Origin: Patescibacteria group bacterium
Lineage (GTDB): Bacteria > Patescibacteriota > Patescibacteriia > UBA2196
DNA: 61,735 nt
Direction: 5' to 3'
NCBI GenBank assembly: GCA_036845805.1
Contig: DAIUDD010000001.1
Coordinates: forward strand, 169,594 to 231,328
Made by a program: the position numbers and the translations under genes. The stretch's first letter is position 1. Each line of letters starts with the position of its first letter. The notes under the pieces are model-generated. The model made no database searches. It was not told the DNA's origin and saw only the letters and a list, made by a program, of their open reading frames with translations. Shown here one piece after another: positions 48,931-56,960 of the stretch.

Positions 48931-49199
48931 GCCACCTTAGCTCCGCCGCATTTTGCGGGGCAAGCAACTGGCCCGCCCGCAACGCCTCGCAAGCTCGGCT
49001 TGCGTGGCAGGCGAGTAGCCTCTGGCCCTACGGGCCATATGCTAGGGAGGGAGCAACGGTATCGCCCGCCTGCCAAAGCCATCTTAGCTCAGCTGGTAGA
49101 GCAACGCATTCGTAACGCGTAGGTCGTCGGTTCAAATCCGACAGATGGCTCTGGCGGGCAGGTAAACCAAGGTTCCCGGTTCAAGCCCGGGAGGTGGCT
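48931..49199 (+). pseudogene. Split outer tRNA-Thr enclosing hairpins and a complete tRNA
   Basis: GCCACCT/AGGTGGC acceptor, GCTC/GAGC D stem, CCCGG-TTCAAGC-CCGGG T arm; inserts 48944-49050 and 49065-49162. Confidence 0.7.
49078..49150 (+). tRNA. tRNA-Thr(CGT), intact, nested
   Basis: Full cloverleaf; ACGCA-TTCGTAA-CGCGT anticodon arm; GTCGG-TTCAAAT-CCGAC T arm. Confidence 0.93.
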
Positions 49200-55530: not shown

Positions 55531-55630
55531 TTTCTTTCTCCTTAATTTTAATCTCTTTTTTTTCTTGACACTTTGACACCGGACACTCTGACACTTATTT
55601 TGACCGCTCTCCCTAAAACTGTTATTATAA

Positions 55631-55866
55631 AAGCGCCTCGCAGAAACCATTTTCCTCAATCATTTCTACAACCATTTCTCGTTGGAAAACATATTTTGCC
55701 GCTCTTCTGGTTAGACCAGGGAATGCCAATGAGTTTTCCCGCGATCATTATCACGGCCTTTGGTTTGCCCGGACTCGGATTTACTAAGTCTGCGGCAAAA
55801 CACTGGCCAGATCCGTTTCTTAAACGGAATTGATTGTTGTGATTTTGTCATCCTGCGGGGTGTTTT
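55631..55866 (+). ncRNA. Candidate ~235-nt rod-like structured RNA (6S-like?)
   Basis: TTGACC-17-TATTAT promoter; 5'/3' closing stem; inner TTTTGCCGC/GCGGCAAAA stem. Confidence 0.35.
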
Positions 55867-55876
55867 AATTATTTAT

Positions 55877-56163
55877 CGGGGTGTCGTATACCGGTAGTAC
55901 GCGTCCATGGGGGTTGAAGCGATTAGCTTCAACGGGCGAGGAGGTTTGCCTGTGGCAAACCACCACAAGCCCAGGCTTTTATTTTTTATTTCGGGCTATA
56001 GCGCAGTTGGCTAGCGCGCATGCATGGGGTGCATGAGGTCGGCAGTTCAAATCTGCCTAGCCCGAAAGAAAAAATAAAAGATGTAGACGGGGTTCACCCT
56101 GCACCATAAAGGTGCATGGTAGCCCTAAACCTTTATGGTTTAGGACAATTCACCGCACCCCGA
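55877..56163 (+). pseudogene. Split outer tRNA-Pro enclosing hairpins and a complete tRNA
   Basis: CGGGGTG/CACCCCG acceptor, GTAT/GTAC D stem, CGTCC-ATGGGG; inserts in anticodon and T loops. Confidence 0.7.
55992..56065 (+). tRNA. tRNA-Pro(GGG), intact, nested
   Basis: Full cloverleaf; CATGC-ATGGGGT-GCATG arm; GGCAG-TTCAAAT-CTGCC T arm. Confidence 0.93.
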
Positions 56164-56179
56164 TAAAAGTGTAGAATGA

Positions 56180-56346
56180 GGGTGCATGAGGGTTTAAAAG
56201 ACACACTGTGTCTTTTAAACCAGTTCAAATCCGGCTACCCCGATAATTAAGACATTAAAATTATAGATCGGGTTCACCTTGCACCATAAAGGTGCAAGGT
56301 AGTCCTAAACCTTTATGGTTTAGGGCAATTCCCCGCACCCCGACCA
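56180..56346 (+). repeat. Two further tRNA-Pro 3'-half fragments with hairpin inserts
   Basis: TTCAAATCCGGCTACCCCGA ending 56243; near copy of 56084-56163 at 56264-56346 ending ACCA. Confidence 0.7.
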
Positions 56347-56384
56347 ACTGAAAGAAAACAAACTTATGGTTTGTACTACTTATT

Positions 56385-56960
56385 ATGCCACCTAATCTAA
56401 TCTGCCAAGATAAAACCGACGAAGACTTGGTTTCCTTGACACTTAAAAATAATGATTACTTTTCTTGTCTGATGAGCCGCTATGAACAGCGACTTTTGTT
56501 TTATATTATCCGGCTCTCCGGTTTTAAAAAAGATGAAGCGGAAGATGTTCTGCAGGAAACATTTATCAAAACTTTCTATCATTTAAGTGATTTTGACAAA
56601 AAACTTAAATTTTCTTCCTGGCTTTATCGAATTACCCATAACGAAACCATTAATGCATTGAAAAAAAAGAAAAGTAAAATAATTATTAACTTAACAACCG
56701 AAGATTGGCAAAACATTGCCACTAAAAACAATCTCAAAGAAGAAATCGCGGCAAAAATTAATCAAGAAAAAATTAAACAATTAATTAACCACCTGGAACC
56801 AAAATATCAAGAAGTTATAATTTTAAAATTTTTAGAAGATTATAGTTATGAAGAAATTTCAGATATTTTGCAAAAACCAACTGGCACTATTGCGACCCTG
56901 CTTAATCGCGCTAAAAAAAAATTAAAACAAGAATTTATAAAAATTAATTTTACCTATTAA
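56385..56960 (+). CDS. ECF RNA polymerase sigma-70 factor
   Basis: AEDVLQETF, KFSSWLYRITHN, YSYEEISDIL..GTIATLLNRAKKKL. Confidence 0.93.
   Translation: MPPNLICQDKTDEDLVSLTLKNNDYFSCLMSRYEQRLLFYIIRLSGFKKDEAEDVLQETFIKTFYHLSDFDKKLKFSSWLYRITHNETINALKKKKSKIIINLTTEDWQNIATKNNLKEEIAAKINQEKIKQLINHLEPKYQEVIILKFLEDYSYEEISDILQKPTGTIATLLNRAKKKLKQEFIKINFTY

Follow-up and report, generated by a model that had tools for sequence, protein, structure and literature searches.

In this study, we examined a 470-nt tRNA-Pro locus in a genome of Patescibacteria (candidate phyla radiation, CPR) type. With a probability of roughly 0.7, we read it as a multi-layer scar that contains one working gene, its three downstream 3′ pieces being non-functional relics in the DNA. 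The locus occupies positions 55877–56346 of what we call the window, the whole 61,735-nt stretch that was analysed (G000:C1:169594-231328), and consists of one complete tRNA gene with four tRNA-Pro-like pieces around it. Throughout, G numbers label genomes, L numbers loci and C numbers contigs; G000 is the source genome (773 kb, 13 contigs, about 35% GC), and the others are relatives or genome bins. Relatives hold two sequence types of tRNA-Pro(GGG), the O-type and the I-type. Judged by sequence comparison, the events shown at the locus would be a replacement of tRNA-Pro type, one insertion of a twin hairpin at C56/R57, one tandem duplication, one further hairpin insertion, and decay. From 5′ to 3′, the features are:

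55877–55912, plus strand: outer 5′ part, positions 1–36 of an O-type tRNA-Pro(GGG) through the anticodon GGG; matches the intact O-type genes of G001, G021, G022 and G020.
55913–55933, plus strand: hairpin hp1 (G TTGAAGC GATTA GCTTCAA C) at the 3′ edge of the O-type anticodon loop, from sequence and fold.
55934–55975, plus strand: M module, made of GGGCGAGGAG, an 11-bp hairpin with an A-A mismatch, and CACCACAAGCCCAGG; 80% identity to G022 over 117 nt.
55976–55990, plus strand: T-rich arm, which pairs with the A-rich arm at 56066–56080 and lengthens the acceptor stem of the inner tRNA (inverted repeat; minimum free energy, MFE, fold).
55991–56066, plus strand: inner I-type tRNA-Pro(GGG), intact, without encoded CCA (ARAGORN; Rfam tRNA, 62.2 bits, E 4e-11).
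56066–56080, plus strand: A-rich arm and spacer from the inner tRNA to copy 1; the same junction (A-rich spacer, ATG TAGA C) is found in G006.
56080–56163, plus strand: copy 1, O-type positions about 40–73 (GATG TAGA CGGGG TTC(insert)AATT CACCG CACCCCG A), without CCA, from sequence and repeat analysis.
56096–56146, no strand assigned: twin hairpin of copy 1, 51 nt, in the T-loop between C56 and A57; both stems with one mismatch.
56176–56243, plus strand: copy 2, the 3′ half (positions 32–73) of a second I-type tRNA-Pro, collinear with the inner tRNA; acceptor strand TACCCCG.
56191–56221, no strand assigned: hairpin of copy 2, of the GTTTAAAAG...CTTTTAAAC family, with 15-nt arms and a 1-nt loop; perfect inverted repeat.
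56260–56346, plus strand: copy 3, the original O-type 3′ end, positions about 40–76 including CCA, contiguous with the native downstream flank.
56276–56326, no strand assigned: twin hairpin of copy 3, stems fully paired (one G-T), 47/51 identical to the insert of copy 1.

The three downstream pieces end in CACCCCGA at 56163, TACCCCGA at 56243 and CACCCCGACCA (CACCCCGA plus CCA) at 56346. Each can pair with the outer 5′ CGGGGTG (55877–55883), the first and last over 7/7 positions and the second by six Watson-Crick pairs and one G-T, so that the coordinates, ends and pairing given by the original prediction, a note made from the letters of this DNA, all hold. The motif YACCCCGA occurs four times in the window and all four occurrences fall within the locus, one of them being the minus-strand reading of the outer 5′ end. 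That note had spoken of three 3′ halves, a term that fits copy 2 (positions 32–73) but not copies 1 and 3, which hold only about positions 40–73 and 40–76; in both of these the leading TGTAGA corresponds to the end of the anticodon stem and the variable loop, and is followed by the T-arm and the acceptor strand.

The O-type reads CGGGSTG-GTAT-ACCGGTA-GTAC-CGTCC-ATGGGGT-GGATG-TAGA-CSGGG-TTCAATT-CCCSG-CASCCCG-A and the I-type CGGGCTA-GCGC-AGTTGGCTA-GCGC-CATGC-ATGGGGT-GCATG-AGGTC-...-TTCAAAT-.... The T-arm of the O-type is CGGGGTTCAATTCCCCG. Native sequence directly precedes the outer 5′ part, and copy 3 runs directly into native sequence. Since both outermost pieces abut native flanks, the O-type was the resident gene, with about 350 nt of other material now inside it. 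Accordingly, the alignments show what was evidently a resident O-type tRNA-Pro(GGG) with encoded CCA, replaced in place by an I-type gene. With its T-rich and A-rich arms, this I-type gene now separates O-type position 36 from position 40 and by all appearances supplies the function. It is the only functional-looking gene with a GGG anticodon in G000, whose tRNA complement comprises 45 genes, 18 of them with encoded CCA. Together with the acceptor stem, the two arms (55976–55998 and 56058–56080) form a 23-nt inverted repeat that is 96% complementary and paired in the MFE fold; a weaker form of this extension is made in G006 with the native upstream flank.

Reassembly of the pieces in ARAGORN is in line with these assignments. 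The outer 5′ part joined to copy 1 without its insert, with TG supplied for the two missing nucleotides, is called as tRNA-Pro(GGG), although the G-A mismatch in the T-stem stays. It is also accepted when 12 nt of the M module are borrowed instead of TG, and with the insert left in place no tRNA is called. The inner 5′ part joined to copy 2 without its hairpin gives a tRNA-Pro, while the outer 5′ part with copy 2 gives nothing; the copy-3 construct likewise fails. We had considered the outer 5′ part and copy 2 as one former gene, and this was rejected because the anticodon-stem strands GCATG and CGTCC do not pair and ARAGORN finds nothing. Copy 2 does share GGGTGCATGAGG with the inner tRNA, as had been noted, and CAGTTCAAATC as well. 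It also has the hairpin ascribed to it, which is perfect and has arms of 15 nt, and it is of inner rather than outer type. Where the variable loop meets the T-stem, the hairpin stands in place of TCGG; G016 (in a pseudo-tRNA-Val) and G020 both have members of its family at the identical site of the tRNA, preceded by GAGG and followed by GGTTCAA.

Removal of hp1, the 143-nt middle block and the twin hairpin likewise leaves a sequence that ARAGORN calls as tRNA-Pro(GGG), and this could be taken to mean that the outer gene is a multi-intron or split gene that functions at the RNA level, with inserts removed, alternative 3′ ends, and kissing loops that join the parts. The fold of the whole locus (−217 kcal/mol, z = −11.4), in which the outer 5′ end pairs with copy 3, and the complementarity of the loops ATAAA and TTTAT in the twin hairpin point the same way. 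We nevertheless regard this as highly improbable. The fold stability is trivial, as five perfect hairpins and one tRNA account for it, and the hairpins are not bulge-helix-bulge motifs. A search of G000 for the tRNA splicing endonuclease EndA (PF01974) gave no match at E<=1 while archaeal controls were found, and Rfam (55600–56500, E<=10) returned the inner tRNA alone, with no group I intron and no other family. Each T-stem of copies 1 and 3 carries one mismatch, at different places, and in G020 the homologous 5′ element lacks anticodon-stem pairing. Elsewhere, every twin-bearing copy is cut short on one side, and the twin occurs in both orientations, as expected of insertion into DNA and not of an RNA signal. 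Finally, the intact tRNA-Pro(GGG) makes a second one superfluous. The suggestion of alternative 3′ ends fails on the same grounds: the insert blocks tRNA recognition, both T-stems are mismatched, two outer nucleotides are missing, copy 2 mismatches the outer 5′ part, no splicing endonuclease was found in the search above, and a complete tRNA-Pro(GGG) is present.

Copies 1 and 3 form a 95-nt direct repeat, 86% identical and 180 nt apart, as predicted. The segments 55992–56163 and 56164–56346 are collinear from the anticodon loop onward, their spacers differing by indels, and the second I-type copy has lost positions 1–31. These features show an apparent tandem duplication of about 180 nt, comprising the I-type tRNA, the spacer and the O-type stump, that would have followed the twin insertion and given rise to copy 1 and the copy-2 block. 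Copy 1 is the older duplicate of copy 3. Unequal recombination between repeated tRNA 3′ ends is the most likely route. Alternatively, the tandem copies might be a product of a mis-assembled metagenome bin, through collapsed or duplicated repeats or a mixture of strains, and the assembly does come in 13 contigs and contains repeats. However, a false duplication gives identical copies, whereas copies 1 and 3 differ at 13/95 positions (14% divergence) and their spacers by indels. In addition, the locus lies inside a 231-kb contig, the same junction of tRNA and stump is found independently in G006, and tandem twin-bearing stumps are found independently at L060 and L056. Hence we give an assembly artefact very little weight.

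Comparison across relatives, which had been proposed as a check, revealed O-type only, I-type only, and I-type plus O-type stump. Five genomes of one family, G000 among them, represent five states of the locus. At the syntenic site, G009 has an I-type gene with CCA alone, and G003 has an I-type 5′ fragment split by D-loop hairpins and then an I-type gene. In G001, a hairpin-split 5′ fragment is followed by an intact O-type gene with CCA. G006 carries an I-type gene without CCA, an A-rich spacer, and an O-type stump that runs from about position 40 and ends in CCA. The flank upstream of the outer 5′ end is common to G000, G001, G006 and G009, and the flank downstream of copy 3 (ACCA-ACT.AAA) is similar in G001, G003, G006 and G009. 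An attempt to establish synteny through the downstream sigma-factor gene was abandoned, as its orthologues in G009, G007 and G005 lack an upstream tRNA; synteny is thus given by the upstream side only. Within the G006 stump, a 20-nt palindrome, CCTGCCTGCCGGCAGGCAGG, lies at the exact T-loop position of the G000 twin hairpin (L011 1609-1628). A tRNA-Gln fragment of G024 has the same palindrome in its anticodon loop, and G000 has it once; the loci noted for it are L011, G000:C10:6201, L117 and L125. As G000 and G006 share the junction of I-type gene and O-type stump but have different hairpins in the T-loop, stumps appear to acquire their hairpins once they are dead.

Duplicated tRNA 3′ ends are a textbook signature of integrase-mediated insertion, and the original prediction had offered a record of repeated integration events. 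That part stands which sees successive events in the DNA, with relatives at different stages; the copies are not, in our view, integrase att duplications. On the latter account, integrase islands or prophages would have entered the 3′ end of the tRNA-Pro gene repeatedly and later been deleted, leaving stacked attL/attR copies, and the outermost copy does carry CCA and the native flank. Yet the only two tyrosine recombinases (PF00589) of G000 lie on contigs C9 and C10 and none on C1, in a search that did not extend to serine recombinases. The repeats are 80–180 nt apart, with no island remnant and no kilobases bracketed. Further, a 5′ fragment is present as well, the intact gene and copies 1 and 3 are of different tRNA-Pro types, and where this architecture is seen again, at many tRNAs, the genes next to it code for GIY-YIG proteins and not for integrases. 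Relics of this kind are therefore quite unlikely.

The 51-nt inserts lie exactly between TTC and AATT in copies 1 and 3; position, length, identity and two-hairpin structure are as first described. Each folds into two hairpins of −25.3 and −32.2 kcal/mol; a single long hairpin formed from the complementary cores was rejected, being far weaker at −14.1 kcal/mol against −25 to −35 kcal/mol for the separate pair. The chance expectation for the twin pattern in the window is 0.00. Both hairpins have the apex ACC-ATAAA-GGT, in opposite orientation, so that the twin is a pseudo-symmetric inverted doublet of one hairpin motif and would look alike on both strands. This explains why the loops, ATAAA and TTTAT, are complementary; they had been called capable of kissing, and formally they are, but inverted copies of one motif are the better explanation and kissing is not needed.

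In a scan for the exact pattern, the search for the insert elsewhere that had been suggested, the twin was recovered at C2:169470-169519 of G000, with a single (half) hairpin on C9, which makes three sites in this genome in all. Thirteen further loci were found, eight in other genome bins and five on metagenome contigs. All 12 of the 12 independent insertions, from at least nine genomes, lie in a partial tRNA copy, following T(T/C)C if in the T-loop and TTC if in the anticodon loop (CTTCGGA) of tRNA-Arg(TCG). Of these, four are oriented one way relative to the tRNA and eight the other. Lower stems covary between genomes (CCATG/CATGG, CCAGG/CCTGG, CCTTG/CAAGG). On this comparative basis, the twin hairpin is, we believe, a mobile element specific for tRNA loops. 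Insertions are usually flanked by CG...CG, in the window by CA...CA (T-loop TTCAATT), and at L058 by CG...CA. The window thus favours duplication of C56-R57, L058 speaks against it and all CG sites fit both, so that duplication and plain insertion at C56/R57 look the same and a 2-bp CR target duplication does not serve as proof of a staggered GIY-YIG cut; this ambiguity counts among the points against our account of the agents given below.

The twin-bearing loci come in two arrangements. At four or five of the 12 (C2/L061, L053, L055, L050), the twin is followed after 10–30 nt by a small GIY-YIG open reading frame (ORF) and then by the intact cognate tRNA, and no twin copy was seen downstream of the GIY-YIG ORF in twin-bearing loci. 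Others (L051, L054, L056/L060, L058) resemble the window, with intact tRNA, spacer, and a T-arm stump that contains the twin. At L060, twin-bearing 3′ stumps follow tRNA-Ser in a tandem array, much as in the window, and L056 likewise has tandem stumps. The left junction of these stumps after tRNA-Ser, GTAGAC-GGGG-TTC, is that of an O-type tRNA-Pro (compare window 56082–56095), and their right side is that of tRNA-Ser. With a Pro-type left and a Ser-type right flank, some stumps are therefore chimeric, and they look as if the twin had carried one flank along or copies had recombined.

UPF0213 proteins are tiny GIY-YIG proteins found across bacteria, with solved structures, and to our knowledge they have no known function. 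Beside the twin on contig C2 lies an 85-aa nuclease gene (G000:C2:169541-169798) that matches the UPF0213 proteins 1ywl and 1zg2 in PDB; in NCBIfam it has sub-threshold matches to group I intron endonucleases alone. In total, G000 has eight small GIY-YIG ORFs, six of one type (MxYxYIL...YxGxT...KxST...REKxxK), and 5/6 of these lie 14–138 nt from a tRNA gene. The other small type is flanked by TGTC-type hairpins. Sixteen extra tRNA fragments are present in the genome, nearly all beside the cognate gene, and at the nuclease loci GC-rich hairpins are found in, or replace, their D-, anticodon- and T-loop regions.

Relatives show the same association. UPF0213-like ORFs occur in 24/31 genomes. Of 31 ORFs examined, 18 lie less than 200 nt from a tRNA, all 18 co-oriented with it and 15 with the tRNA immediately downstream. 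Hairpin-interrupted cognate fragments, with segments 100% identical to the intact gene, are found upstream of 14 of 16 ORFs that have a downstream tRNA. The closest relatives of the C2 nuclease (57–64% identity; L102, L103, L104) have a TTCR loop upstream that is split by one or two hairpins, those of L104 being of different sequence.

Two further tRNA loci of G000 illustrate the debris. In the array at tRNA-Lys(TTT) (G000:C7:24850-25700), which a run of N interrupts, the intact tRNA has two or more pseudo-copies upstream, with TCCGCC...GGCGGA hairpins in place of D-stem and anticodon-stem strands; after it come a GIY-YIG ORF and then a 3′ stump that has a hairpin in its T-loop. The hairpin-bearing stump ends in CCA and the intact gene lacks it. 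At window 48931–49199, an intact tRNA-Thr(CGT) lies between the inverted repeats CCCGCCTGCCA and TGGCGGGCAGG, nested in a hairpin-riddled outer tRNA-Thr whose 3′ end, GGTTCCCGGTTCAAGCCCGGGAGGTGGC, is at 49170–49199.

These observations suggest a mechanism. The agents of both the replacement and the hairpin insertions would be selfish elements of Patescibacteria, made up of small UPF0213-type GIY-YIG nuclease genes with cognate hairpins. They may attack the loop-coding DNA of tRNA genes, probably while it is single-stranded or cruciform, and an insertion would be kept only at sites that retain an intact tRNA copy next to the broken one. Intact genes would stay free of insertions through selection, and dead copies would keep the target G-G-T-T-C|R and gather hairpins. 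Stumps that keep the target and are free of selection would explain the different hairpins at the same T-loop site in G000 and G006. By analogy with the nuclease-bearing loci, we tentatively propose UPF0213 GIY-YIG nucleases with cognate hairpins as the agents, acting, in the manner of the Ssn nucleases, on loop DNA that is probably folded and single-stranded, with selection sparing intact genes, while holding the odds to be somewhat below even. With similar reserve, the twin may be a REPIN-like non-coding partner of a minimal (~85-aa) clade of UPF0213 nucleases; the two would make up a hairpin-guided mobile system that reads the T-arm of tRNA genes as folded single-stranded DNA, inserts after T54-T55-C56, lasts only where a tRNA copy is to spare, and drives continual tRNA turnover in Patescibacteria.

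Several points weigh against our account. No GIY-YIG ORF was found at the Pro locus, a feature present at five other tRNA loci of G000, and the link to these nucleases is therefore by analogy with other twin-bearing loci. We know of no demonstration that UPF0213 proteins cut the DNA of tRNA genes or move hairpins. G000 also has Y1 (RAYT/IS200-like) transposases, which are known mobilisers of hairpins, with flanking repeats of a different family. RAYT as mover of the twin was rejected, since the RAYT-like Y1 gene (G000:C1:62241-62720) is flanked by other repeats. These are several GTAAC-tagged hairpins (TCCGAAC-TTTA-GTTCGGA), a separate repeat system. In addition, the events may have taken place in another order, and G000 and G006 could have gained the I-type gene independently. 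Lastly, the stumps are conserved better in their tRNA-like parts than the spacers are, which could point to gene conversion or some function.

Such preservation is what one would look for if split copies were kept for a use, be it as decoy or immunity sites for the nuclease, as homology arms for homing, or as leader or processing signals. The 5′ side of the locus bears on this as well. Its 5′ element is 80% identical to that upstream of an intact O-type gene in G022, a genome of another family, and is also found in G020. Both hp1 and the M hairpin show compensatory changes between G000 and G022; G022 and G020 carry a different hp1 sequence with its pairing intact. The M module has the consensus GGGCGAGGA(G/C), an 11-bp hairpin with a conserved A-A mismatch and a covarying stem, and (G/C)ACC(G/A)CAAGCCC(A/C)GG. 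It occurs in about 8/401 genomes of the class, in up to five copies per genome and always beside tRNA fragments: in G020, G022, G028 (five copies), G129, G216, G247 and G263, with loci in the window and at L012, L023, L028, L066, L086, L091, L093 and L094. Usually it lies between a reverse-complemented and a direct T-loop copy, the stump in question following a tRNA-Glu or tRNA-Gly. The suspicion of a twister- or pistol-like ribozyme, raised by AAGCCC, was dropped, as no match in the Rfam search of 55600–56500 supported it.

The conserved pairing of hp1 and the M hairpin across families thus speaks for a use, as do the fragment segments of relatives that are 100% identical to the intact tRNA and a promoter-like site. 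The latter, just upstream of the outer 5′ part, is the sole such site near a tRNA start, and the inner tRNA is therefore probably transcribed through the outer part. Against a use, mismatches have accumulated in copy 1, both in its T-stem and in the stems of its two hairpins, and states differ among the five genomes of one family, some of which are without any fragments. Covariation of the hairpins is equally expected of mobile hairpins that need their fold for recognition, and recent duplication or gene conversion explains the identity of fragments. Overall, we consider retention for a use unlikely, though less so than att relics, and prefer to see the pieces as relics.

As for the surroundings of the locus, promoter and terminator scans were not above background, and the ORFs around it encode ychF-like, ndk-like, sigma-factor and membrane proteins. 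The 51-aa ORF listed at 55881–56036, which runs through tRNA fragments as well as the inner tRNA, is almost certainly spurious.

These findings may have practical consequences. In annotation, tRNA-like debris beside tRNA genes of ultra-small bacteria should be taken as a history of selfish elements, not as noise and not as split or spliced tRNAs. Reduced genomes swap tRNA genes in place for other alleles, which matters for tRNA phylogeny and for the tRNA complements of metagenome bins. The locus further offers a clean insertion site (after the T-loop TTC), a defined 51-nt element, and a candidate enzyme elsewhere in G000, and so makes the function of UPF0213 directly testable. Should nuclease and twin indeed form a mobile system, the stumps of the Pro locus would be a fossil record of tRNA turnover, such as that from O-type to I-type. 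Full-text literature searches returned nothing relevant on tRNA-targeting GIY-YIG/UPF0213 elements or hairpin-split tRNA fragments in CPR, and the element family is apparently undescribed in the literature, yet common within the clade.

The locus can be compared with several known systems. It resembles integrase/att insertion in that a functional tRNA is followed by direct repeats of the tRNA 3′ part, of which the outermost is the original end, and differs by having no integrase on the contig, no island, an extra 5′ fragment, another tRNA type, and hairpins in loops. Multi-intron, split and permuted tRNA genes are known from archaea, and here too interruptions fall in the anticodon loop and the T-loop and the pieces are separated by other sequence. 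In contrast to those genes, however, there is no splicing endonuclease or bulge-helix-bulge, nucleotides are missing, and stems are broken. REP/REPIN doublets are mobilised by RAYT, and IS200/IS605 elements use hairpin-guided single-strand transposition. Like REPINs, the twin is a non-coding inverted hairpin doublet that is symmetric between strands, inserts at a short motif and covaries in its stems. Unlike in REPIN/RAYT systems, the RAYT-like gene here is flanked by another repeat, and the twin flanks a GIY-YIG gene and targets tRNA loops.

A parallel for the replacement comes from atp6 of Allomyces macrogynus, where mobile endonuclease ORFs of fungal mitochondria reportedly create hybrid genes (Paquin, Laforest and Lang, 1994). 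There as here, the incoming element brings a replacement for part of the gene, whose function is kept, and what was displaced persists further downstream as a pseudogene. The target there is a protein-coding gene of an organelle, with no hairpins and no tandem stacking, whereas at the Pro locus a whole tRNA was replaced and the stumps were colonised by hairpins.

Two GIY-YIG systems are closest with regard to the candidate nuclease. SegB, one of the free-standing GIY-YIG homing endonucleases of T-even phages and encoded in the T4 tRNA cluster, leaves mostly 2-nt 3′ overhangs, and its cut in the DNA of a tRNA gene drives copying of the nuclease gene and its flanks (PMC2330249). The likeness lies in a small GIY-YIG gene among tRNA genes. 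SegB has a DNA-binding extension and is not known to leave hairpin-split tRNA copies or to have cognate hairpins, while the proteins considered here are ~85-aa single-domain UPF0213-like proteins encoded in cellular genomes, with none at the Pro locus. What the Pro locus does share with the GIY-YIG cassettes of tRNA loci are hairpin-interrupted cognate tRNA copies beside the intact gene, in the form of one 5′ and three 3′ fragments. The second system, Ssn (GIY-YIG, cd10448), cuts beside hairpins in single-stranded DNA and is linked to NTS/SRM hairpin repeats, which it recognises in single-stranded form and which are dispersed in the genome (PMC11893778). In that report tRNA is unmentioned and mobility of SRM is not claimed (PMC11893778), and the twin-adjacent nuclease here is UPF0213-like. 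A hairpin-directed, loop-specific nuclease could be useful in biotechnology, like the Ssn enzymes. Ssn and the elements considered here both have a single-domain GIY-YIG nuclease genomically linked to hairpin-forming repeats (for Ssn, PMC11893778). As regards dispersed, nuclease-flanking hairpins like those of Ssn/SRM, the twin lies upstream of the ORF at four to five loci of different genomes but has only three sites in G000.

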